From Candidatus Gottesmanbacteria bacterium (lineage in GTDB: Bacteria > Patescibacteriota > Microgenomatia > 2-02-FULL-39-11), in the NCBI GenBank assembly GCA_016195685.1, contig JACPZE010000002.1, positions 4,177 through 68,176 on the forward strand: 64,000 nt of DNA, written 5' to 3'. Positions 2,988 to 53,897 of this stretch are shown here, piece by piece. How positions within the stretch are numbered: position 1 is the stretch's first letter; the number at the start of each line of letters is the position of its first letter. Both the position numbers and the translations under genes were made by a program. The notes beneath the pieces are model-generated. The model saw only the letters and a program-made list of their open reading frames with translations. It was not told where the DNA came from and did no database searches.

Positions 2988-4193
2988 TTACTCATACCTA
3001 ATTGCTTCAATTGGTGAAAGATCTGCGGCTTTTTTGGCTGGGAAAACACCAAAAATAATTCCAATAAGTGAAGAAACGCCTAAAGCAATTGCGACTGTTT
3101 GCAAATTGATGTAAGCAGGGAAAACTCGCTGAACTAGTAAAACTATCAAAAAAGAAACAGTTAACCCCAGAAGTCCTCCGATAAGAGATAAAAACACAGC
3201 CTCTGCCAGAAATTGGAAAAGGATATCTTTGCGTGTTGCTCCAATTGCCCTCCTTATCCCTATTTCTTTTATTCTTTCAGTTACAGTCACGTACATGATA
3301 TTCATGATTCCAATACCTCCGACAAGCAGTGAAATGGCAGCGATTGCTACAAGTACTGTATTTATGATGGAAAAAATTGAGGAAATTGCACTTAAAAGTT
3401 CTGCTTGTTGGATGACCGAGAAGTCATCTTCTTTGTAGCGTTTCAAAAGTTGTTTTTTTATATCATTTCGAAATACCTCAAGGTCTACCTTTGTGCGTGC
3501 TTTGGCAATAATGACCATAAATTTTTTATCGGGATTTAGGCTAAATGCGGTTTTGTAAGGTAAATATACAAAAGAATCCAAATCTGGCCCCCCAAAGCCT
3601 CCCCCTTTTGCTTCTAAAACTCCAATAATTCTAAAGCTTTGGTCTTGTACTTTGATGATTTTATCCAGAGCTTTTACTTCCTGATCATAGAGTTTGGCGG
3701 CAATTTTGGGTCCAACAACTGCCACTTTTGAACGCTTTTCCACATCATCTTTAGTAAAAGCAGCGCCGTATTTAGTCTTCAGATTGATTCCGAGAAAAAT
3801 GTCAGCACTGCTTGCATATAAATCGGCAATATTGGAATTTTTGCCAGAACTTGCAGTGATCGTTTTAGTAAAAACAGGAATTATATATTCAGCTTCTTTG
3901 ATGCGTTTAAGAGAAGCTACATCTTTTTCATCAAACCTTATTCCTCCAAAAGCGCCTGGTCCCGAACGAAAACCTCCACCAGAAAGTATTCTTCCGGGAA
4001 CAATTCTAACGAGATTTGTCCCCAAGCTTTCAAACTGGTTTTCGATATACTTTTTAAGTCCTAAGCCAAAGGACATAAGGAGGACGACAGAGGAAACACC
4101 TATAAGAATTCCCAGAGAAGTGAGGATAGTCCGACCTTTATTTCTGCGGAAATCTTCAAGTGAGCCTTTTATCAAAAAAAGTAGATATTGCAT
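2988..4193 (-). CDS. ABC transporter permease, FtsX/MacB family
   Basis: 401 aa. An N-terminal TM helix, a large extracytoplasmic domain and C-terminal TM helices give FtsX-like topology. Immediately downstream of the ABC ATPase. Confidence 0.8.
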   Translation of the reverse strand: MQYLLFLIKGSLEDFRRNKGRTILTSLGILIGVSSVVLLMSFGLGLKKYIENQFESLGTNLVRIVPGRILSGGGFRSGPGAFGGIRFDEKDVASLKRIKEAEYIIPVFTKTITASSGKNSNIADLYASSADIFLGINLKTKYGAAFTKDDVEKRSKVAVVGPKIAAKLYDQEVKALDKIIKVQDQSFRIIGVLEAKGGGFGGPDLDSFVYLPYKTAFSLNPDKKFMVIIAKARTKVDLEVFRNDIKKQLLKRYKEDDFSVIQQAELLSAISSIFSIINTVLVAIAAISLLVGGIGIMNIMYVTVTERIKEIGIRRAIGATRKDILFQFLAEAVFLSLIGGLLGLTVSFLIVLLVQRVFPAYINLQTVAIALGVSSLIGIIFGVFPAKKAADLSPIEAIRYE

Positions 4194-4869: not shown

Positions 4870-5899
4870 AAACGGTTTCACCCGCGGTAACACCTGAAGT
4901 AATCTCAGTATCACTGTCTGTTTCCATCCCTGTTATGACTTCAACTTTTTCTTCTTTATCTTTTTTCTTCACTGTCACATATTTTTTGCTTGCCTGCGCA
5001 GGTAGGCCGTTTTGACTCGTGATAAATTTACTTGGTACATACAAAACGTTTTCCTTCCTTTTGGTGACAAAAGAAAGATCACCCGCCATGCCAAGTCTAT
5101 ATTTATAATCTGTATTGTCATTGGGAAATATAAATTTGACTTTATAAACTGTTCCTGTTTCATCCGCTTTAGGCAAAAAAGAGATATTTTTGATGGTTCC
5201 AGGTAGTGTTGCTTCAGGATAAGAATCAAGAGTTAGTTCTCCACCCATATTTTCGGTTAGCTTTACAACTTCGGTTTGATCAGCAGATGCAGAAAAATAG
5301 ATAGTTTTCGGATTTACAACCTCAAATTCTGCCTGGGTAGGAATAATATTGACACCACCGTAAGGAGCAGATACTCGGGTGACTACGCCTTCTATGGGTG
5401 TCCAAAGATTGGCATAGTCAATTGCGAGGTTTTGAATTTCAACATCTAAAACAGACTTATTTAGGGTAAATTGATATTTATCTATAATCCTTTTGATAGG
5501 ATCGGTGATAACTTGATCTTTATATGTATCACGCTTAGCCTGGTCTAAATCCCAACGAGTTGAAAGGTAATCATTTAATTCTTTTTGCAATGTTTTTTGC
5601 AATGCTATTTGATCTAAAGAGGCGATAGCTTGATATTTTTTTACATAATCTCCTTCCTTGACTCCTACCCAAGTAAGTCTTCCGGCTGTTTGAAAGCGTA
5701 ATGTCACGTGTTCATCGGCATCGACGGTTCCTGATATCGTCATTTTTTCCTCTAAATTTCCTTGACTTACTTTTGTACTCAATAATTTCTTTTGTCGTGG
5801 ACCAGAAACAAAGTTGCGGTAAATGAGAAAACCAAAAATAGCTATAATTATAATGATTACAAGGATTTTTTTCCTTTTAATAATTCGGATAATTTTCAT
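4862..5899 (-). CDS. Efflux periplasmic adaptor / membrane-fusion protein (HlyD/MacA family)
   Basis: N-terminal TM anchor, coiled-coil and beta-barrel region typical of membrane-fusion proteins. First gene of a three-gene operon with the ABC ATPase and FtsX permease. Overlaps the ATPase start by 8 nt. Confidence 0.75.
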   Translation of the reverse strand: MKIIRIIKRKKILVIIIIIAIFGFLIYRNFVSGPRQKKLLSTKVSQGNLEEKMTISGTVDADEHVTLRFQTAGRLTWVGVKEGDYVKKYQAIASLDQIALQKTLQKELNDYLSTRWDLDQAKRDTYKDQVITDPIKRIIDKYQFTLNKSVLDVEIQNLAIDYANLWTPIEGVVTRVSAPYGGVNIIPTQAEFEVVNPKTIYFSASADQTEVVKLTENMGGELTLDSYPEATLPGTIKNISFLPKADETGTVYKVKFIFPNDNTDYKYRLGMAGDLSFVTKRKENVLYVPSKFITSQNGLPAQASKKYVTVKKKDKEEKVEVITGMETDSDTEITSGVTAGETVYD

Positions 5900-7738: not shown

Positions 7739-8743
7739 TTATACCAGATCTATAATTTTCATACACAGTTTGGCTATTTTGGATGAGTCATGTCTTATAA
7801 GACTTCTGTTTAAAAGATCACCTGTTTCTTTTTTTACTAATTTAGGAGATAGAAGATCAGCCGCAATTACCTTAAATGAAGTAGTTTTAGCAAAATCATT
7901 CATGATGGGCTCAGCGTCTACTTTCTGGTAGCGTTTCAATATATTTGGGGGAATTGGGGCATTATTTATAAAAACATAATCAAGGTTTTTTGATGGTAAA
8001 TACTGATTTAAAATATTGATGAACTTCGATGCAGTAAATTTATAAGTTTGACCTATTTCAGTCATCAGATTCTGTATGTATATAATCTTTGCCTGACTTT
8101 TAGAAAGTGCTTCCCCCATGCCATTTATCACTAAGTTAGCGATGATAGTAGTGTAGAATCCACCAGGTCCAATGATTATAAGATCACTTTCAGAGATGGC
8201 TTTTCCTACTTCGGGATTAAGTAAAGCCTTCGGATTGGTATAAAGTCGAGTAATAGCAATTTTACCGTTGTGAGCGGGTTGGTCGATAAAATGTTCTCCT
8301 ACGACCTTTGTTCCATCTGCGTAACTAGCGACCAAATCGATTTTATCCATGGTTACGGGTAAAACTTTTCCTCTTATCCTTAAAAATTCAGAAGCCTTTT
8401 CAATAGCTTTTGATTGGGAATTCATAATTTTTGTCAAAGTGACTAAAAACAAATTTCCAAAAGTCATTCCAACAAATCCTTCACCCTCAGAAAAACGGTA
8501 TTGGAAAAGCTTTCGAAGCAAAAGAGAATCACTCGTGGAAACGTCCGCAAGGGCCAAAAGAGATTTTCTTATATCACTGCTGGGCAATAATCCCCATGCA
8601 TCTCTTTCTTTTTTTGCGCTTCCGCCTGAATCAGCCATAGATACGACCGCCGTAATGTCGGCTGGATAATTTTTCAATCCTGACAGGATGCTGTAGGTTC
8701 CAGTACCGCCTCCAATTACGACAATTTTTTTATTCTGTTTCAT
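7739..8743 (-). CDS. yvcK: YvcK/UPF0052 (CofD-like) gluconeogenesis factor family protein
   Basis: N-terminus IVVIGGGTG...SMADSGGS. Length 334 aa. Confidence 0.8.
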   Translation of the reverse strand: MKQNKKIVVIGGGTGTYSILSGLKNYPADITAVVSMADSGGSAKKERDAWGLLPSSDIRKSLLALADVSTSDSLLLRKLFQYRFSEGEGFVGMTFGNLFLVTLTKIMNSQSKAIEKASEFLRIRGKVLPVTMDKIDLVASYADGTKVVGEHFIDQPAHNGKIAITRLYTNPKALLNPEVGKAISESDLIIIGPGGFYTTIIANLVINGMGEALSKSQAKIIYIQNLMTEIGQTYKFTASKFINILNQYLPSKNLDYVFINNAPIPPNILKRYQKVDAEPIMNDFAKTTSFKVIAADLLSPKLVKKETGDLLNRSLIRHDSSKIAKLCMKIIDLV

Positions 8744-9141
8744 TTAAAAACCCATCCTAGCAGTTTATTTATTAACACTGACAGTATTGCCAATAATATA
8801 GTAATTTGCCATTTTACCAAATTTAGAGATGAAAGAGTAATCGGTCCGATGTGGATACCCGAAAAATGCCAATCTGAGATTTTGACTTGAGGAGTTATAA
8901 TTGTCCACATATAAAAAATAGCTATCTGTATGATCCAGGAGGACATGTTTAGGGTAATTAAGTTTATTGGCAGCATTATGATATTTAAGATAGGTTTAAC
9001 AATGTATTGCAAAAGTAGCCAGATAAAGGCTGCATAAAAAAATCCTTGCCATGATCCAGAAAGGGAAAAAGAAGATACAAGCTGTGTCAAAATAAATATA
9101 GATGCAATAGCTAGGAGATATTTTTTCAATATAAATTTCAT
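8740..9141 (-). CDS. Small 4-TM membrane protein (phage-holin-4-like / DUF family), translationally coupled to yvcK
   Basis: 133 aa, very hydrophobic with about four predicted helices. Its stop overlaps the yvcK start in an ATGA arrangement. Confidence 0.4.
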   Translation of the reverse strand: MKFILKKYLLAIASIFILTQLVSSFSLSGSWQGFFYAAFIWLLLQYIVKPILNIIMLPINLITLNMSSWIIQIAIFYMWTIITPQVKISDWHFSGIHIGPITLSSLNLVKWQITILLAILSVLINKLLGWVFK

Positions 9142-9196
9142 CTTGATTTTTCAGATTATTATACAATGAACTTATTTCAATTTAGTATGAATAAAT

Positions 9197-10504
9197 TTAA
9201 TTATCTGCTGACATTACATGGCGGATTCGTAACAAAGAATGATAATTATGTGCGAACCTATGTGCCTCATCTCTTAGTCTTTTGACTAAATTTAATGCTG
9301 CCGAATTAGACGGCAGCGAAGCTTTTATAAATATCCCTTTGTATGGTATAACTATTTCTTCAAACAGTTTCGCCAGTCCAATAATAGGTATTTTTACTTC
9401 TAATGAATTAATTACTTTTAAAAGCGATGCAACTTGAGGTTTGCCGCCATCAATGACAAATAAGTCAGGGTAGTTCCATTCCGAATGACTTAGACGTCTC
9501 ATCATCATTTCGGATAATGATGCAAAATCATCAGGAGTAGATTGGCGTTTGATGCGAAATCTGCGATAGTAGTTTTTATCAGGTTCACCCATCCTGAAAG
9601 TGACCATCGAACCTGTTGTTAATTTTCCAGAAATATTACTGATATCGTAACATTCAATATGGTTTAGTTTTGTGATTTTGGGATAGTAAGGCTTTAATAT
9701 TTCCAATAATTCCTTTTCCTCATTTGTACGAATTTCAGTAAGCAATTTGGGATTTCTCAAGTACGATTCGGGAGATGTATAATGGTTTGTCAAATATTCA
9801 AGTTGAGTAAGCTTATCTCGATAAACTGCCGCTTCTTCATAATTTAGATTTTTAGAGGCAACGCTCATTTGGTTTAGAATATGTTTTTTTACCTTGCCAA
9901 TTTCACCATGTAGTAATTCTGTAATATGTCTGATATTTCGTCTATACATAAAATAAAGAAGGCGATAGTTTTTAGCATCTTTGACTAAAGCCGCTGGACA
10001 AGGGTTGCAAAGCCCAATGTGATGATAAAAACATGCTCTTTTTGATTTTTCGTTTTGAGTACAGAAAGGGAAAATCGATCTGATATAGGATAAAATATCT
10101 TTTACTATTTTAGACGATGGGAAAGGTCCAAAAAATTCATCTTGGAGATTTGGTTTTCGAGCAAATAATACTTTTGGGAATTTTTCTTTTGTAATTTTTA
10201 TATATATGTAATGCTTATCGTCTTTCCACAACACATTATATTTGGGTTGGTATTGTTTTATTAGTCTAGCTTCAAGAAGCAATGCTTCAAATTCTGATGC
10301 GACTGGTATGCTTTCAATATATTTGATTTTCGAAATTAAATTGAGAGTCTTAGAATCCTTTTCGTCATCTGTAAAATAACTATTTACTCGATTTTTCAGA
10401 TTTTTTGCTTTTCCAACATAAAGCAAAAAATTTTCTGGCGTATAGAATTTGTATATACCGGCAAAAGAAGGAATATTTTTAAGTTGATTTATTAAAAACT
10501 TCAT
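9197..10504 (-). CDS. uvrC: Excinuclease ABC subunit C (UvrC), short form lacking the C-terminal (HhH)2 domain
   Basis: GIY-YIG N-terminus (GIYKFY...LYVGKAKNLKNRVNSYF). Cys cluster CFYHHIGLCNPCP. UVR-like helix. RNase H-like endonuclease domain (IECYDISN...VIDGGKPQV...GLAK...RDEAHRFA). The protein ends after the RNase H-like domain at 435 aa. Confidence 0.85.
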   Translation of the reverse strand: MKFLINQLKNIPSFAGIYKFYTPENFLLYVGKAKNLKNRVNSYFTDDEKDSKTLNLISKIKYIESIPVASEFEALLLEARLIKQYQPKYNVLWKDDKHYIYIKITKEKFPKVLFARKPNLQDEFFGPFPSSKIVKDILSYIRSIFPFCTQNEKSKRACFYHHIGLCNPCPAALVKDAKNYRLLYFMYRRNIRHITELLHGEIGKVKKHILNQMSVASKNLNYEEAAVYRDKLTQLEYLTNHYTSPESYLRNPKLLTEIRTNEEKELLEILKPYYPKITKLNHIECYDISNISGKLTTGSMVTFRMGEPDKNYYRRFRIKRQSTPDDFASLSEMMMRRLSHSEWNYPDLFVIDGGKPQVASLLKVINSLEVKIPIIGLAKLFEEIVIPYKGIFIKASLPSNSAALNLVKRLRDEAHRFAHNYHSLLRIRHVMSADN

Positions 10505-13428
10505 ATAACTTTTGCCAGAAATTGGCCGGTATGAGATTTGTCATTTTCTGCAATTTCAAGTGGAGTCCCGCTGGATAATATATAACCTCCTCCGTCTCCT
10601 CCTTCTGGCCCAAGATCTATTATCCAATCGGCATTTTTGATAACGTCTAAATTATGTTCAATGACAATAACAGTATTTCCCATATTTACCAACTGTCGCA
10701 ATACCAAAATTAGCTTTTCCAAATCAGCAAAATGAAGCCCGGTTGTAGGTTCATCCAGAATATAAAGTGTATTGTTTGTGCCTTTTTTCGATAATTCTGA
10801 AGATAATTTTACCCTTTGAGCTTCTCCTCCGGAAAGTTGCGGCGCAGGTTGTCCAAGATGTATGTAAGATAAACCGACCTCGTGCAGCGTTTCTAATTTT
10901 GTATAAAGGCTTGGTATTTTCCCGAAAAATTTGAGACCTTCTTCAACTGTCATTTGTAAAACTTCAGCAATATTTTTTCCTTTATAAGTGACTTCCAAAG
11001 TTTCAGCATTATAACGAGTTCCTCTACAGACGTCGCATGTTACATACACATCGGGTAAAAACTGCATTTCAATTTTTGTTTGGCCTTCTCCTTCACACAC
11101 TTCACACCGGCCGCCTTTGACGTTAAATGAAAATCTTCCAGGGCCGTAACCTTTCATTTTAGCCTCCGGCATCTGAGAGAATAAATCACGAACAAAAGTA
11201 AATGCCCCGGTGTATGTTGCCGGATTACTTCTGGGTGTTCTACCAATTGGGGATTGATCTATCAATACTACTCTTTTTAATTTTTCAATTCCAACAATAG
11301 TTGAAAATTTGCCACCTTTTTCTCGGTGGTAAGGATTGAAAAAAGATGCAACTGCATGAAAAATGGTATCTACTACTAATGTGGATTTTCCACTTCCTGA
11401 AACACCAGTGACACAAATAAAATGTTTCAAAGGGAATGAAGCAGTTAATTTTTTTAGGTTATTTTCACAAGCGTCATGGATGGTAAGGCAATTATCCACG
11501 TCGACTTTGCCTATAATATTTTTTTGGGCTATGCTGATAATTTTTTTATTCGATAAATATCTTCCCGTAATCGATTGGGGGTTCTTTTTTATCTCGTCTA
11601 AGGTGCCACTTGCAATAATTTTGCCTCCGTGTGTACCAGCCGCAGGGCCAAAATCATAGATAAAATCAGAACTTTCTATCATTTCTCTATCATGCTCAAC
11701 CACGATAACACTGTTTCCGAGATTTCGAAGTTTCATAAGAGTTGCGATCAGTTTATTATTATCTTTTGGATGAAGACCAATTGATGGTTCATCAAGTACG
11801 TAAAGAACTCCAGATAAACCTGACCCTATTTGGGATGCGAGTCTGATTCTTTGTGCTTCTCCTCCAGCTAATGTATTGGCGCTTCTGTCAAGTGAGAGAT
11901 AATTTAGTCCTACCGAAATTAGAAATGAAAGTCTATTTTTTATCTCCCTAATGATTAAATTAGCAATAGTTTTTTCCCGAGCATCTAATTTTCCCCATAA
12001 CTCTTCATGCCACTGCAAAGCTTTGGAAATTGAAAATTGAGCTATATCTACTATAGTTAGGCTGTCTATGATAATTGAGAGGGCTTCAGCTTTCAGTCTT
12101 TTTCCTAGACACGCAGGGCATATTTCCTGTTTCATATATTTTCCTATTTCGCTTCTGACATATTCCGATTCTGTTTCGCTATATCGTTTTTCCAGTTCGG
12201 GTATCACCCCTTTGAATTCTTCGTAAATTGTAACTATTTTTCCGTATCGATTAGTACCGGATACTTCGTAAATTTCATTCCCAGTGCCGTAAAGTAGTTT
12301 TTGACGCTTTTGCGCAGTGATTCCTTTTAAGGGTTTATCACTAGCGATGCCGATTTTCTTAACAGAAGTTAAAAGTACTCTTCCGTACCAGGAATCAGAT
12401 AAAATAAGCCTGGCAAAAGGTAATATTGCTCCTTCTGTTATTGAAAGGCTTGGATTTATGATCATATCTGGATCAACTTTCAAAAGCGTTCCAATTCCGC
12501 TGCATTTTGGACAAGCCCCGTGTGGTGAATTAAAAGAAAAAAGTCTTGGTTCAACTTCTGGCATGGACAAATTGCACTTGGGGCATGAAAATCTCTCTGA
12601 AAAAAGGTGGTCAGTCATATTTTGGGGTTTATCCGGAAAATCAAATGACGCATCGGATACTTTAGAAATGATAACTAACCCTTCAGAAATAGCGGTTGAT
12701 TGTTCTATTGCATCATTTAATCGTGATCTTAGCTTAAGTTGTTCCTGCTTATTATTTAATTTTCCTCTATCACAACTAATCCTGTCGATAACTACTTCGA
12801 TTGTATGTTTATTTGTTTTTATTAAAGTTAGTTCCTCATCTAATCCGATAACATTTCCGTCAATTCTTACTTTGGTAAATCCTTTTGAGCGCAGATTAGC
12901 AAATAAATCTCTAAATTCTCCTTTACGATCTAAAACTATTGGAGATAGAATAAGTAGTCTAACCGGCTTTCTCCCCAAATCATCAGTAAATTTTTTAATC
13001 AGTTGAATGGTATTGGAAGTAATTTGTTCGATAGACTGTTTGGATATCTCTGTACCACAATTTGGACAATGGGGATGGCCGATTCTGGCAAAAAGTAACC
13101 TGAGGTAATCATAAATTTCTGTGATTGTACCGACTGTAGAGCGGGGATTATGGGAGGTAGATTTTTGATCTATTGAAATTGCTGGAGAAAGGCCATCAAT
13201 AGAATCTACGTCCGGTTTATCCATGACACCCAAAAATTGCCTTGCGTAAGAAGAAAGGCTTTCTACATATCTACGTTGCCCTTCAGCGTATATAGTGTCA
13301 AAAGCAAGAGACGACTTACCGCTTCCAGAAAGCCCAGTAAAAACAACAAGTTTATTCTTGGGTATTTCGACATCAATATTTTTTAAATTATGCTGTCTGG
13401 CGCCCCGAATGATAATTTTGTCTTCCAT
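10501..13428 (-). CDS. uvrA: Excinuclease ABC subunit A (UvrA)
   Basis: 975 aa with two ABC modules (GLSGSGKSS and GVSGSGKST), zinc-finger cysteines and two LSGGEAQR signatures. Overlaps the uvrC start by 4 nt. Confidence 0.95.
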
Positions 13429-47531: not shown

Positions 47532-48560
47532 ATGGATAAAGAACTTAATGTCTTAAAACAAGAAACTTTAAATGCTATCGGGAAACTTGCCGATAATAAA
47601 AAGCTAAATGAACTATATTTAGATATTTTTGGCCAAAGCGGAAAGTTTACAAATCTTACCAAAAAACTTAAAACATTATCAGCTTCTGAAAAACCTCAAA
47701 TTGGAAGATTACTCAACGAAGTAAAAAAAGAATTAGAAACCGCGTTTGAAAAACACAAAAGTATAATTCGTAATTTTAAGCTAGCGGAATGGATTGATGT
47801 AACTGCATCCGGCAGTGGCCCATCAACTGGTCATCTTCATATTGTAAGTCAGGCAATTGCGGAGATAACAGAAATTTTTGAAAGAATCGGTTTTACCCGC
47901 ATGAGATATCCGGAAATCGATTGGGATTGGTATTCCTTTGAGTCATTGAATATGCCTGTTAATCACCCAGCCCGAGATGATTTTGAGACATTTTTTATAG
48001 ATTTACCTTCAAATCCCAAATTGGGAAAGGTCGTACTCTCTCCACATACTTCATCTGGACAAGTCAGAGAAATGGAAAGAGTAAAGAAACCACCGATAAG
48101 AATGATCAATATTGCGAAATGCTACCGTCCCAATTGGGATATCTCGCACACGCCAATGTTTCATCAATTTGAGGGATTAGTTATCGATAAAAACATAAAT
48201 ATTACCCATCTTAAAGGTACTTTTGACTATTTTGCCAAGGAATTTTTCGGCAAAGAGAGAAAAATCAGACTTCGACCTTTTCATTTTCAATTCACAGAGC
48301 CATCGTTTGAGGTGGATATCACCTGTGGAATATGCAGTGGCCGTGGTTGTAGATTTTGTAAAGACGGATGGTTGGAATTGGGCGGATCAGGAATGGTCCA
48401 TCCAAATGTATTGCGAGCCGGTAATATTGATCCGGATGTATATACCGGATATGCATTCGGTTGGGGAGTTGAGCGAACTTATATGATGAAGCAGGGACTT
48501 AAAATAGACGATCTACGACTTTTATATAGTAATGATATCAGATTTTTGGAGCAATTCTAA
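47532..48560 (+). CDS. pheS: Phenylalanine--tRNA ligase alpha subunit. The likely start is MDKELNVLKQ.
   Basis: Class II core motifs, including FRPFHFQFTEPSFEVD and GWGVER. Confidence 0.9.
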   Translation: MDKELNVLKQETLNAIGKLADNKKLNELYLDIFGQSGKFTNLTKKLKTLSASEKPQIGRLLNEVKKELETAFEKHKSIIRNFKLAEWIDVTASGSGPSTGHLHIVSQAIAEITEIFERIGFTRMRYPEIDWDWYSFESLNMPVNHPARDDFETFFIDLPSNPKLGKVVLSPHTSSGQVREMERVKKPPIRMINIAKCYRPNWDISHTPMFHQFEGLVIDKNINITHLKGTFDYFAKEFFGKERKIRLRPFHFQFTEPSFEVDITCGICSGRGCRFCKDGWLELGGSGMVHPNVLRAGNIDPDVYTGYAFGWGVERTYMMKQGLKIDDLRLLYSNDIRFLEQF

Positions 48561-50554
48561 TGAATATACTTTTACCTGATTCTTGGCTTCGGGAATATCT
48601 TAAAACAGATGCATCCCCTAAAGAGATAAAAGAATTCCTATCGCTTTGCGGACCATCTGTTGAAAGAATTGATCAAGTTGATACAGATTACGTTTATGAG
48701 ATTGAAATTACTTCAAATAGGGTAGATATGGCATCCGTCTATGGCATTGCCCGTGAAGCTGCAGCAATTCTACCAAGATTTAAAAAAGGTGCAAATCTCA
48801 AAACTTTAAAAGTTCGGCAATCCATTAAACCAAAAATTTCGTTACCGATGCAAATTTCCGATCCGCAAAAGATTTGTAATCGCATTATGGCGATTGTACT
48901 AGAAGTTGACCCGATGAAACCATCTCCAGATTTTATAAAAGACCGGATCGAGAAATCTGGCGTGCGCTCTTTGAATAATTTGGTTGATATTACCAATTAT
49001 GTCATGCTTGAGATTGGCCACCCAACCCACGTATTTGATTACGATAGGATAAAAACCCATTCCTTTTTAATTCGCAAAGCCCAAAAAAATGAACCCATCA
49101 TTACCCTTGATGGTAAAAAATATCTATTAGATCCTGAAGACGTAATTATAGATGATGGAACCGGAAGAGTGATCGATTTACCGGGAATAATGGGTACAGA
49201 AAATAGCGTGGTAAATAGTTCAACCAGAAGAATATTGTTTTTTATTGAATCGAATAATTCACTACTTATCCGAAAAACCTCTATGCGATACGGTATTCGC
49301 ACAGTAGCAGCAACAATTAATGAAAAGCATCCAGATCCGGAATTAGTAAAAACAGCATTATTACGGGGAATAGAATTATATCAAAAGCATGCGGCGGCAA
49401 AAGTTGCAAGTCAAGTAATCGATATTTATCCCAATAAGCCAACTCTTCCAAAGATAAAAGTGTCGACAGAATTTATCAATGACAGATTGGGGGTAGAGTT
49501 AAAAACTCAGGAAATAATTAATATTCTAAAATCATTATCATTTGACGTATTAAATAGTACTGACTTACTTATTACTCCACCCTCGTTTCGTCAATTTGAT
49601 GTCACGATCCCAGAGGATATAGTTGAGGAAGTCGCCCGCATTTATGGATATCATAACCTACCAAATAGACTCATGACGGGTGAAATCCCAATTACCGATA
49701 AGCCTAAGGATTTACCAATTGAGGCAAAAATCAAAACAATCTTAAAATACTGGGGTTATACTGAAACTTACCATTATTCTTTTGTCTCTAAATCCCTGAT
49801 TGCAAAAAGTGGACTTTCTCCAAAAGATCATCTCCGTGTAGCCAATCCCCTCACAGAAGAAATCGAATACATGCGAGGTTCGCTAGTCCCGTCAATGCTA
49901 GAAACAATTTCTAAAAATCAATACTATAAAAATAGTCTAAAGCTCTTTGAATTAGCTAAAGTCTACATCCCACAGAAGGGTAATTTGCCGCTGGAACCTT
50001 CTAGAGTCGTTATCGCTGAACAGACTGATTTTTATAAATTAAAGGGCACTGTTAACGCATTATTAAAAGAACTAGGCATGCCGGATTCTAAACTAGTACT
50101 AGAGAAAAATACTTTTTTTCACCCGCAGCAATCAGCTGGAGTAACTTTAAATGGCGATACATTTGCCATGATTGGTAAACTTCATCCATCATTAGCTTCT
50201 GCTTTTTCTCTAAAAGATGATTTATTTATCGCAAGTATAAATGTGGAAAACTTAGTAAAGCTTGCTAACCCTATAAAGCACTATACTCCTATTCCTCACT
50301 ACCCAGCGGTGATTGAGGATCTAACATTATTGCTTCAGCCTAAAACTCAAATAGAACTAATTAAGAGTGAAATTTATAAAGTTAGTCAGCTTGTAAAAAA
50401 TGTGGCAGCTCATGATCCATACCAAAACGCAATTACACTACGAATAACTTATCAGGATGAAAGCAAAAATCTGGAAAGTGCAGATATCAAGAAAGTTAGG
50501 GAACTGATTTTATCCACTCTAAAATCCCGATATAATATAATTTTGAAACAATAA
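48560..50554 (+). CDS. pheT: Phenylalanine--tRNA ligase beta subunit (short, 664 aa)
   Basis: Typical PheT N-terminus MNILLPDSWLREYL. B3/4, B5 and catalytic-like domains. Confidence 0.9.
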   Translation: MNILLPDSWLREYLKTDASPKEIKEFLSLCGPSVERIDQVDTDYVYEIEITSNRVDMASVYGIAREAAAILPRFKKGANLKTLKVRQSIKPKISLPMQISDPQKICNRIMAIVLEVDPMKPSPDFIKDRIEKSGVRSLNNLVDITNYVMLEIGHPTHVFDYDRIKTHSFLIRKAQKNEPIITLDGKKYLLDPEDVIIDDGTGRVIDLPGIMGTENSVVNSSTRRILFFIESNNSLLIRKTSMRYGIRTVAATINEKHPDPELVKTALLRGIELYQKHAAAKVASQVIDIYPNKPTLPKIKVSTEFINDRLGVELKTQEIINILKSLSFDVLNSTDLLITPPSFRQFDVTIPEDIVEEVARIYGYHNLPNRLMTGEIPITDKPKDLPIEAKIKTILKYWGYTETYHYSFVSKSLIAKSGLSPKDHLRVANPLTEEIEYMRGSLVPSMLETISKNQYYKNSLKLFELAKVYIPQKGNLPLEPSRVVIAEQTDFYKLKGTVNALLKELGMPDSKLVLEKNTFFHPQQSAGVTLNGDTFAMIGKLHPSLASAFSLKDDLFIASINVENLVKLANPIKHYTPIPHYPAVIEDLTLLLQPKTQIELIKSEIYKVSQLVKNVAAHDPYQNAITLRITYQDESKNLESADIKKVRELILSTLKSRYNIILKQ

Positions 50555-50558
50555 AATA

Positions 50559-50807
50559 CTATTTCCTTATTTGGTAGGTAATAATTATCGCTTCCGCAAT
50601 TTCTTTCATGGTTTTTCTTTCTTTAGTCGCTTGCTTCCTTATCATGTGATAAGCTTCATTTTCTGTAGTATCCATTTTTTCCATAAGTAGACCTTTTGCA
50701 CGACTTACGGCCTTTTGAGTCGCTACCGCCTCCTCTAAAGATTTAGTTTTATCAAGCAAATCCGCATGCTCAATGGCCCTGCCAATAAGTTTTCCGACCA
50801 TTTCCAA
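50559..50807 (-). CDS. ANTAR RNA-binding (antiterminator) domain ORF, in the -1 frame relative to the upstream GAF ORF. It is probably the C-terminal half of a single GAF-ANTAR regulator.
   Basis: AVSRAKGLLMEKMDTTENEAYHMIRKQATKERKTMKEIAEAII is a complete ANTAR domain. The frame is open upstream through ...SYLSKKAGRTLEM. Confidence 0.7.
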   Translation of the reverse strand: MEMVGKLIGRAIEHADLLDKTKSLEEAVATQKAVSRAKGLLMEKMDTTENEAYHMIRKQATKERKTMKEIAEAIIITYQIRK

Positions 50808-51247
50808 AGTTCTACCTGCTTTTTTGGATAAATATGAGGTTTTCTATGTTTTACGTTTAGTACGCCTACTATCACCGAACCACTTATAATCGGAACAGAT
50901 AAAAATGATTCAAATAGATCATCTGGTAAACCAATTACGCGTGAAAAACGAGGATCTTTTTGTGCTCGTTTCTCGATGATCACTGGCTTTCCGTGTTTAG
51001 CAACCCATCCTGTAATTCCTTCTCCAATCTTCATTTTTAATTTGCCGACAATTTTAAAATGAAGTTTAGAAGCTCGCAAAATTACGCTTTGCCCCTGTTC
51101 GTCTAATATATAAACTCCTGTTGAGTCGGCATTTGTGATTTTAGCAACCAAAGCATCTACTTTTGCCAATAATTCATCTGTTTCCAAAGATGAAATTGCT
51201 TCAATCACTTGATATAGCACCTCATGATTGTTTACGGCTTTTTTCAT
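50735..51247 (-). CDS. GAF domain ORF (sensor domain). It runs 73 nt past the ANTAR frame start before terminating.
   Basis: GITGWVAKHGKPVII...DPRF GAF motifs. The C-terminal 20 residues look like out-of-frame readthrough. Confidence 0.7.
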   Translation of the reverse strand: MKKAVNNHEVLYQVIEAISSLETDELLAKVDALVAKITNADSTGVYILDEQGQSVILRASKLHFKIVGKLKMKIGEGITGWVAKHGKPVIIEKRAQKDPRFSRVIGLPDDLFESFLSVPIISGSVIVGVLNVKHRKPHIYPKKQVELWKWSENLLAGPLSMRICLIKLNL

Positions 51248-51252
51248 AAATT

Positions 51253-51269
51253 TGTGCGATTATAGCACA
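51253..51269 (-). promoter_or_regulatory. Extended -10 (TGcTATAAT) embedded in a perfect inverted repeat TGTGC-N7-GCACA, immediately upstream of the GAF ORF
   Basis: Seen: tgtgcgattatagcaca on the plus strand. The minus strand reads TGTGCTATAATCGCACA, followed by aatttATG. Confidence 0.35.
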
Positions 51270-51287
51270 TTTTGACTATCCGTGAAA

Positions 51288-53897
51288 TTACGGAGTAGGG
51301 GAAGGAGGAATTGCCGTGGGAGATGGAATAGGTGTAGAAGTAGCGGAATCGGGAGAAACCTTTACACCAATTGTAATCTGAGATTCTCCACTGTGGTTAT
51401 CGCTATCATATGCCCTCACTTTGATTTTATGAATTCCATCATCTACATGTAGAGTTGTATCAAATAAGCTAACACTATCTGTTTTTTTCAGACTGTCATC
51501 TACATAAATTTCCATTTTCTTAATATCTTTTAATGCTTTTGCGTCTGCCAAAATTTCAATATCATTACTGTCAATCTTGCTTTTATCTGAAGGTTGCTTT
51601 ATCCGCACCACCACATCGTTTTGATTATTACTGGATATATCTGACGGCGGATGGTAAATAGATTCTCCTTGTTTACTTACCCAGACATCTATACCTTCTT
51701 GCCACTGATTTTTACTATCCCTTGAAGTTGGATCGCTCTCAATAAACTTAATAAATTCTTGTTCATCATAGTTACCGGTAGCTATTTCAACCGGGTTTGC
51801 CAGCTTATTATGATCGTTTTTAGATAATTTAATCTTTTGATAAATAGGGGATATGGTCGTAGGTTCTGTACCTTTTATAAAATATTCATTTCTCGTAGGT
51901 TTACCCTCGTGGGGTAAACCTCCTCCAAAAGCATCTATCGTTAGAGATATAACATCACTTGGTGCTTTTAACTCTTCATTTCCTTTATTTTTCAATGCTT
52001 CCCTCATGACTCTATTCCAGATGGGCGCAGCTCCTGTGGCACCCGAAGCAAGTTTTGGGTTCATAACGGAATTATCATTATTTCCAACCCACACACCTAT
52101 AACTATCGATGGTGTGTATCCTACAGTCCAGTTATCTCTTTTATCATCCGTTGTCCCTGTTTTTACGGATACCGTCTTGCCTGGTATAACTAAATAACTG
52201 TTTGGGCCAAAAACATCTTTCCGTGCATCATTGTCAGAGAGAATATGTGATACCAAAAAGGTAACATCTTCTCCCAAAACTCGTCTACCAACTTGTGATT
52301 TTTTATCATAAAGAGTCTTGCCATTACTATCGGTGACTTTTAATATCGATACTAAATCATTTTTTATACCACCCGTGGCTAATACACCGTAGGCGGAAAC
52401 CAAATCCATTAGCCTCACTTCTGCACCACCCAAAGTAATTGATAATCCAAATTTTTCTACATTACTATCAGTGGGAGAAAGTGAGGATAAACCCATATCA
52501 TAAGCGTTTTTAAGGATATCTTTAATACCTACCAGCGCGGTTGTTTTTACTGCGGCAACATTGATAGAATTTCCTAATGCATACCGTATTTGTATAGGTC
52601 CTCGGAATTTATTATCATAATTTTTAGGGATGTAGTCAGGCTTGCCAGCGCCGCCGGGAAAATGGGTTTCCACATCCATCAAAACAGATGCAGGGGTATA
52701 ACCTTTCGAAAAAGCTACCGCATAAGTGATCGGCTTTAAAGCACTACCGGGTTGTCGGTAAGCCTGACTAACAACATCATACTTACCTTGAAAATCAGTA
52801 TCGGTTGAATCATATTCACGGCTTCCAACGTAGGCTAAAATTTCTCCTGATTGAGGGTTAATAGCAAATGCTCCACCATTACTTACCTTTAAATCTTTTA
52901 TTTTATCCAACTCTTCTTTCATCACTTTTTCTGATAACCTTTGCAGATCACTGTCCAATGTCGTAATTACTCGTAAACCACCATTTTCTACTTGTTTATC
53001 GCCGAACATATCTGTAAGCAATTTTTTCACATACAAAACGAAGTGCGGCGCTATAAATTGACCACCGGAGCTAGCGAATTTCACATTTCCTAAGTCATTT
53101 TTTATACTTAGTTCTTCTTTTTGTGAAATATAACCATCCGCAGTTAACCTGGCTAAAACTTCCTCAGCGCGAGTTTTATATGCATTCGCATTAACTGAAA
53201 AGGGAGAGTAGTAAGATGGCCTTTGTGGAAGTCCTGCGAGTATTATTGATTCTGTTGGCGTTAAATCTTTGGCGTGTTTACCAAAATAACCCTCCGCGGC
53301 CGCTTCTATACCCCACATTGTCCCACCATAAGGAGCTTCATTTAAATACATTTGTAATATTTCATCCTTGCTGTATTTTCTTTCAATTTGGACGGCTAAA
53401 ATAAATTCCTTGATTTTTCGTGGAAGAGTACGTTCGGAAGTAAGTAAGACATTTTTGACAAGCTGCTGTGTAAGAGTAGATCCACCCTGCAAACCGCGAA
53501 ATGTAATTATGCTAAAAAGCGCCCTTAAGAGTCCTCTTGGATCAAATCCTTGATGTTTGTAAAAATCTTTATCCTCTATAGAAATCGTTGCCTTCTTGAC
53601 TGCTTCAGGAATATCGGAAAAAGATATTGGAATACGATTTTTATCTGTAAAAATATCATAAACTGGTTTCTCATTGCGATCCAAAATCACCGTAGAAAAC
53701 CCTTGATGCTGCTTTACTTTATCCGGATAGGGTAAATCCCGAGAATACCAGATAAATAGAATTACTGTTAATAAAAATAACCCGATTACCCCAATTATGA
53801 CCATAGAAGTCAAACTGTTTACCAGTCGAAGTCTAACTAAACGTGCCCTGTATGGATTTGAATTTTGAATACGAAATCTGCGAAATGTAAGTGCCAT
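51288..53897 (-). CDS. Class A penicillin-binding protein (PBP1A-type transglycosylase/transpeptidase) with a C-terminal extension and a Pro/Ser/Thr-rich tail
   Basis: N-terminal TM helix. GT51 motifs EDKDFYKHQG and RKI.E. Transpeptidase motifs SALKP, SIN and KTGTT. An extra domain of about 230 aa ends in ...SPDSATSTPIPSPTAIPPSPTP. Confidence 0.85.
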   Translation of the reverse strand: MALTFRRFRIQNSNPYRARLVRLRLVNSLTSMVIIGVIGLFLLTVILFIWYSRDLPYPDKVKQHQGFSTVILDRNEKPVYDIFTDKNRIPISFSDIPEAVKKATISIEDKDFYKHQGFDPRGLLRALFSIITFRGLQGGSTLTQQLVKNVLLTSERTLPRKIKEFILAVQIERKYSKDEILQMYLNEAPYGGTMWGIEAAAEGYFGKHAKDLTPTESIILAGLPQRPSYYSPFSVNANAYKTRAEEVLARLTADGYISQKEELSIKNDLGNVKFASSGGQFIAPHFVLYVKKLLTDMFGDKQVENGGLRVITTLDSDLQRLSEKVMKEELDKIKDLKVSNGGAFAINPQSGEILAYVGSREYDSTDTDFQGKYDVVSQAYRQPGSALKPITYAVAFSKGYTPASVLMDVETHFPGGAGKPDYIPKNYDNKFRGPIQIRYALGNSINVAAVKTTALVGIKDILKNAYDMGLSSLSPTDSNVEKFGLSITLGGAEVRLMDLVSAYGVLATGGIKNDLVSILKVTDSNGKTLYDKKSQVGRRVLGEDVTFLVSHILSDNDARKDVFGPNSYLVIPGKTVSVKTGTTDDKRDNWTVGYTPSIVIGVWVGNNDNSVMNPKLASGATGAAPIWNRVMREALKNKGNEELKAPSDVISLTIDAFGGGLPHEGKPTRNEYFIKGTEPTTISPIYQKIKLSKNDHNKLANPVEIATGNYDEQEFIKFIESDPTSRDSKNQWQEGIDVWVSKQGESIYHPPSDISSNNQNDVVVRIKQPSDKSKIDSNDIEILADAKALKDIKKMEIYVDDSLKKTDSVSLFDTTLHVDDGIHKIKVRAYDSDNHSGESQITIGVKVSPDSATSTPIPSPTAIPPSPTP

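Follow-up and report, generated by a model that had tools for sequence, protein, structure and literature searches.

Two overlapping reading frames on the minus strand of the window (the whole 64-kb stretch of DNA analysed, 36% G+C) encode a GAF domain and an ANTAR domain, raising the question of whether one regulator is made here by programmed ribosomal frameshifting or whether its gene is simply broken. The first frame, 51247..50735, gives a 170-aa product that matches the Pfam families GAF, GAF_2 and GAF_3; the second, 50807..50559, starts with TTG at 50807 and gives an 82-aa product with an ANTAR match at E = 6e-17. GenBank annotates the GAF ORF as MBI3379219.1, on a 69,871-bp contig, and the ANTAR fragment separately as MBI3379218.1. 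The ANTAR frame lies at -1 relative to the GAF frame (the 0 frame) and is open over 50559..50843, bounded upstream by a TAG stop at 50846-50844; this stretch codes for the last part of the GAF helix, followed by the linker and ANTAR. A class A penicillin-binding protein gene (PBP1A, 51288..53897, minus strand; Pfam Transgly, Transpeptidase and Big_7) ends 40 nt upstream on the same strand, and pheT (48560..50554, plus strand; Pfam B3_4, B5, tRNA_synthFbeta and FDX-ACB) converges on the locus from the other side, its stop lying 4 nt from the ANTAR stop.

An earlier inspection of the DNA alone, here called the sequence-only reading, had pointed out that the coding strand reads TAT CCA AAA AAG CAG GTA in the GAF frame, which places the heptamer A_AAA_AAG (50825..50819) in the 0 frame with the X_XXY_YYZ phasing of a dnaX-type slippery site. 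It proposed that both ORFs belong to one GAF-ANTAR gene, being its two halves joined exactly at this heptamer, by programmed -1 frameshifting, through a homopolymer error or as a genuine pseudogene. Its coordinates, domain assignments, relative frames and upstream neighbour were all confirmed, and so was the single origin of the two ORFs, for which an intact 229-aa protein (P0122) and in-frame orthologs are now available. The joint is another matter. The GAF and ANTAR frames are both open over 50843..50738, about 106 nt, and a frame change anywhere within this zone would fuse them, so the exact joining at the heptamer was an assumption rather than an observation.

To locate the joint, two repaired proteins were built, one joined at the heptamer (..PKK-AGRTLEMVGK..) and the other with one T added at 50808-50806 (..PKKQVEL-LEMVGK..). 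The T-run join scored higher with all three Pfam profiles, at 65.6 versus 59.2 bits for GAF_2, 60.1 versus 51.9 bits for GAF and 48.3 versus 39.3 bits for GAF_3. Over the junction the ortholog consensus is ..H-x-Y-P-x-E-Q-V-K-L-L-E-M-V-G-K-L-I-G-R-A-I-E-H, and the window follows it through QVEL in the 0 frame, past the heptamer, and then through LEMVGK in the -1 frame. The change of frame therefore lies inside GAA CTT TGG and not at the heptamer. As the joint, the heptamer was rejected: it costs the GAF profiles 6-9 bits and creates AGRTLEMVGK, which contradicts QV(K/E)LLEMVGK in the orthologs. The tail of the 0 frame had been called junk-like, which is correct for 23 residues (WKWSENLLAGPLSMRICLIKLNL), beyond QVEL, that have a counterpart in no ortholog, but not for the first four, QVEL, which are native. 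The 170-aa product (50735..51247) consists of native residues 1-147 followed by these 23 out-of-frame residues. Two lengths also needed revision, as 27 codons rather than 24 follow AAG in the GAF frame and the fused protein is 229 aa rather than about 250 aa.

The close relatives of this protein are unsplit. A protein search returned 738 relatives, and the nearest, at 54-79% identity, are single GAF-ANTAR proteins of 226-244 aa from Candidatus Gottesmanbacteria-type CPR bacteria; all of the close orthologs compared as protein (about 30, 54-79% identity) are single and in frame. No split GAF/ANTAR architecture occurs among the best 120 of the 738 matches, where only the window's own ORF and one other protein, P0037, are without ANTAR. 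P0037 was rejected as a conserved split form, being a chimeric, frameshifted fragment on an 875-bp ENA contig. It has a PHP-domain-like N-terminus (MKFTHLHTHSHYSLLDG) fused to GAF and loses its frame inside the ANTAR region, and the contig looks chimeric or erroneous. Four orthologs compared at the DNA level are in frame and all four lack A_AAA_AAG, the position being occupied by CCT GAT GAA, TCT AAC GAA, GGT AAG GAA and TCC CAT GAT. At the site of the frame change the orthologs read LLE, with the two leucines coded CTA TTG, CTG TTG or TTA TTG. A profile scan of genome contigs with the family alignment added only distant relatives, at 45% identity or less and mostly from Acidobacteriota, which did not help with the junction.

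An intact version of the window's own gene also exists. At 90% identity the cluster of the 170-aa ORF comprises three proteins, MBI3379219.1, MBI3379218.1 and the 229-aa P0122, the last of which is exactly the sequence given by the T-run repair. P0122 is encoded on L003 (SRR12113410, 2990 bp) and L004 (SRR12113414, 1894 bp), which are identical to the window bar one extra T; the single gap in the comparison is GAAC-TTTT-GG in L003 and L004 versus GAAC-TTT-GG in the window. The lesion is thus the T3 run at 50806..50808 (minus strand), which is T4 in the intact allele, where GAA CTT TTG GAA encodes E L L E. The flanks of the intact allele are the same as those of the window, and the run CCAAAAAAG is unchanged and in frame in it. 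L001 (SRR12113415, 2498 bp) and L002 (SRR12113388, 1081 bp) are 100% identical to the window, T3 included, and encode the 170-aa ORF. GAF and ANTAR, in different frames in the window, therefore share one polypeptide in P0122, as they do in the orthologs. All four contigs are per-run Logan assemblies and the allele calls rest on their consensus; an exact-pattern scan of metagenome contigs covering both alleles gave no match.

The difference between the alleles could in principle be an artefact, with T4 present everywhere and T3 produced by sequencing or assembly. Indel errors in homopolymers of 3-4 nt are rare on Illumina instruments, and an error k-mer would not carry a contig of 1-2.5 kb. The difference does sit in a homopolymer, consensus errors do occur in metagenome-assembled genomes and the source MAG may derive from one of the same runs, but T3 is found in the deposited contig and in two per-run assemblies, with T4 in two others, and an artefact is decidedly improbable. 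Since each allele is present in two separate run assemblies and indel errors are rare on this platform, T3 is taken as a real allele. The four runs appear to come from one groundwater project, as SRR12113421 is cited for BioProject PRJNA640378 and their numbers fall in its series; this Northern California study by He et al. 2021 used Illumina 150-bp paired reads (PMC7906910), which also counts against an error. The homopolymer error that had been suggested earlier, A6 in place of A7, concerns the wrong site, as the A run is identical in both alleles. No further difference separates the two alleles over about 3 kb, so the deletion is recent, and T3 is apparently a recent frameshift allele that is polymorphic.

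The occurrence of both T lengths in different runs, on otherwise identical backgrounds of 2-3 kb, is also what would be expected if the regulator were switched reversibly between T3 and T4 by slipped-strand mispairing. Known contingency loci have tracts far longer than a homopolymer of 3-4 nt. The tract here is only 3-4 T rather than a long conserved simple sequence, and it is not conserved in the orthologs, whose leucine codons are non-homopolymeric; phase variation is accordingly regarded as hardly credible.

The explanation preferred here is that the locus (50559..51247, minus strand) is a single gene for a GAF-ANTAR RNA-binding regulator, split by a real one-base deletion, with the heptamer playing no part as a recoding signal and the allele being loss-of-function or strongly hypomorphic. 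A probability of about 0.85 is assigned to this explanation as a whole. On this account a recent deletion, T4 to T3 at 50808-50806 in codon 148, has shifted everything from the last part of the GAF C-terminal helix onwards, i.e. also the coiled-coil linker and ANTAR, to the -1 frame. Normal translation would then yield a 170-aa protein composed of a truncated GAF domain and 23 junk residues, without the RNA-binding output domain. The T3 form coexists with the intact allele, which other runs show against a background that is otherwise the same.

The consequences for the protein can be gauged from its domains. The GAF_2 profile match of the 0-frame product stops at position 123 of 136 (Pfam). 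AlphaFold models the intact protein (mean pLDDT 86.8) with one continuous helix, residues 142-192, between the GAF core and the ANTAR bundle; the lesion interrupts this modelled helix after residue 147 and appends 23 unrelated residues, and ANTAR is gone from the 0-frame product. An indel that truncates a conserved domain relative to an otherwise identical intact gene is the mark of a pseudogene, and the single-T deletion relative to L003 and L004 is of this kind, which essentially bears out the pseudogene alternative raised earlier. Given a single frameshift with no second lesion accumulated, pseudogene status is something that we infer, and the T3 allele is best read as an incipient pseudogene whose loss of function is predicted from the domain truncation.

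In these terms the split gene is an ordinary frameshift-disrupted gene. With other such segregating pseudogene alleles it shares a single-base indel in a short homopolymer that divides a conserved single-polypeptide gene between two overlapping ORFs, together with the existence of an intact allele and intact orthologs. Unlike the usual case it is very recent, with no other change over about 3 kb and no second lesion, and each of its alleles forms the consensus in some of the runs. In annotation, MBI3379219.1 and MBI3379218.1 should be joined as two halves of one frameshifted gene.

The alternative that first drew attention to the locus is that the ribosome shifts to the -1 frame at A_AAA_AAG, as in dnaX, to make a GAF-only and a GAF-ANTAR product in a set ratio. 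The heptamer is in the correct phase within the dual-open zone, and in E. coli few motifs shift more readily than A_AAA_AAG (PMC4066793, PMC5009743). However, the intact allele carries the same heptamer in an uninterrupted frame, and the match of the orthologs to the 0 frame runs four residues beyond it. Neither the heptamer nor the split is conserved among the relatives examined, none of which retains the heptamer with an out-of-frame ANTAR domain, the pattern that the sequence-only reading had named as support. The 0-frame product, moreover, would be a truncated GAF domain with a junk tail.

Stimulatory elements of the dnaX kind were also sought. The 79 nt after the heptamer fold with an MFE of -15.8 kcal/mol (z = -0.97), and 34 of 200 shuffles are at least as stable. 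No hairpin or pseudoknot was found about 5-9 nt after the heptamer: a local 7-bp stem begins 16 nt downstream, and the hairpin previously put forward for that position, GGCAGGGCC, starts 36 nt past it. The 30 nt upstream (GTAAAACATAGAAAACCTCATATTTATCC) contain neither GGAG nor AGGA, i.e. no SD-like stimulator. The site therefore shares with E. coli dnaX (gamma/tau) its heptamer and the correct phase, but differs from it in having no upstream SD-like element, no hairpin at 5-9 nt and no conservation, in that the frame change needed to fit the orthologs falls 10-13 nt downstream, and in that the 0-frame product is a damaged domain and not a functional shorter protein.

Many ordinary genes of this genome also contain heptamers of this sort. 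The window has 78 copies of AAAAAAG where 58.7 are expected, and 0 of 100 shuffles reach 78; A_AAA_AAG is found in phase in seven long ORFs, of which the six others (at 11590, 13590, 17515, 33927, 61148 and 61828) are uninterrupted. The coding sequence, about 60 kb in all, holds 196 in-phase X_XXY_YYZ sites with Y = A or T, or approximately one every 300 nt, so that one inside a 106-nt overlap is unsurprising. Programmed frameshifting is extremely improbable, and the heptamer (50819..50825) is a set of plain codons, Pro141-Lys142-Lys143, coincidental in an AT-rich genome and lying 10 nt upstream of the lesion. Slippery heptamers abound in AT-rich genomes, and one at an ORF overlap, however much it resembles the textbook case, is no evidence of recoding; here it was comparison with orthologs and a sister allele that located the true lesion 10-13 nt away.

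A weaker role for the same site would be accidental leakiness. The T3 allele would then be a hypomorph and not a null, with a little full-length PKK-AGRT-LEMVGK protein made when ribosomes slip to -1 at the heptamer, without any programming, or when RNA polymerase slips on its A6 run. The heptamer is upstream of the lesion and inside the dual-open zone, and only four residues (QVEL to AGRT) would distinguish the rescued product from the wild type, but these include conserved hydrophobic positions at the start of helix 142-192. A run of six A is shorter than those known to give appreciable transcriptional slippage. At its gathering threshold Rfam finds only two tRNAs in the 64-kb window; the tRNAs there are tRNA-Leu and tRNA-Val, neither of them a tRNA-Lys.

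Compensatory frameshifting is an established concept (PMC5009743), but the expected yield is under a few percent: without stimulators the motif shifts about 0.3% of the time in E. coli, rising to no more than about 3.7% where the 3' context is most favourable (PMC4066793). As in "savior indel" cases such as the G-run mutants of herpesvirus thymidine kinase, there is an indel near a shift-prone sequence; unlike them, the shifty site is separate from the indel, and a rescue here has no known selective rationale. A leaky allele is very improbable, and slippage at the heptamer would at most rescue a small fraction of the product, with no sign of selection or significance. If leakiness were nevertheless real, the population would have a high-expression and a roughly 100-fold lower-expression allele of one regulator, and the case would be one of adventitious compensatory frameshifting in an uncultivated CPR bacterium.

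With the deletion favoured as the cause of the split, the setting in which such an allele could persist becomes relevant. In seven of eight ortholog loci a leader lies directly 3' of the GAF-ANTAR gene, with an ANTAR-type dual hairpin overlapping a terminator (L085:6751-6826, L087:6720-6782, L089:5555-5620, L091:3138-3203, L093:5725-5795, L094:2404-2465 and L095:4716-4780). The two hairpins, detected with a loop-distance descriptor and a covariance model, are small and have hexanucleotide loops, most commonly UAAGCA, and bases in the 3' arm of the second hairpin (GGAC-UAAGCA-GUCC) also belong to the 5' arm of an intrinsic terminator. Covariation supports the structure: 98.7% of cells are paired, a share that falls to 57% or less once the partners are slid, and 7 of the 12 pairs of the dual hairpin show compensatory changes on both sides. 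The cargo genes behind the leader differ between species and are mutually unrelated.

This leader resembles the targets of known ANTAR antiterminators. EutV-type proteins act on a dual hairpin with hexaloops, a G at loop position 4 and competition with a terminator (PMC3369931), and the ortholog leaders likewise have two hexaloop hairpins, the second overlapping the 5' arm of the terminator. The intact protein, like EutV, NasR and AmiR, consists of a sensor, a long helix and an ANTAR three-helix output, although the sensor is a GAF domain and not a receiver or NIT domain. Relative to the canonical loop, UAAGCA keeps the G at position 4 but has A at positions 2-3 rather than 1. The combination of a conserved GAF-ANTAR gene, a dual-hairpin/terminator leader and variable cargo in Gottesmanbacteria is a by-product of this analysis and may be its more useful part.

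The window departs from ANTAR antiterminator systems in that target leader and cargo gene are both absent. The covariance model gives 40-59 bits on the ortholog loci; its best hit in the 64-kb window is 11.6 bits (E = 0.79), the loop-distance descriptor gives 0 matches there, and tblastn of the ortholog cargo proteins against the window gives no match. As the ANTAR stop is 4 nt from pheT, there is no room for a leader and cargo gene at the usual place. Over the 64 kb searched, these results suggest that the target once adjacent to the regulator is gone from this lineage, a loss that would allow a frameshift allele to rise in frequency. Selection on the regulator may thus be relaxed, as the missing leader and cargo gene imply, although the regulator may keep targets elsewhere in the genome. 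On this interpretation the T3 variant would be a small case of within-population regulator loss in a CPR bacterium with the adjacent regulated module deleted.

Two further elements were seen in the ortholog loci. A second, weaker dual-hairpin match at L089:7298-7337 (24.8 bits, E = 0.0012), just past the 550-aa cargo gene, may mark another terminator under ANTAR control in that locus. L091 (about 3039-3064) and L089 (about 5452-5477) have a 26-nt near-perfect palindrome, GTTACCATGTATCGATACATGGTAAC, in the interval from the GAF-ANTAR stop to the leader promoter. It could serve as a terminator or resemble an operator, and L085 and L087 lack it.

Upstream, the gene probably has its own promoter, to judge from the sequence. 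A promoter-like site at 51259..51286 (minus strand; 10 of 12 matches, with TG) includes the extended -10 box TGCTATAAT at 51267-51259, 11 nt before the GAF-ANTAR ATG. The box is conserved before the orthologous genes as TGNTATAAT (L085, L087, L089 and L091), 6-20 nt from the ATG and at 11 nt in three of the four. This conservation makes a separate promoter probable, and the co-transcription with the PBP gene that had seemed plausible is not necessary. The position of the promoter suggests a very short or absent leader, and no obvious Shine-Dalgarno sequence lies between the -10 box and the ATG. A 5-bp inverted repeat (TGTGC..GCACA, 51253-51269) brackets the -10 box and received a terminator-like score for the plus strand; as neither L089 nor L091 conserves it, it is probably due to chance.

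The window shares with L085, L087, L089, L091 and L095 a class A PBP gene that directly precedes the GAF-ANTAR gene in the same orientation; L092, L093 and L094 do not have this arrangement. RibD_C, tyrS, recG and pheST recur near GAF-ANTAR loci. In L089 (OBEQ012083201.1) the gene call divides pheT itself into pieces of 176 and 501 aa at 8597-10641, which would be either another frameshift or an assembly error.
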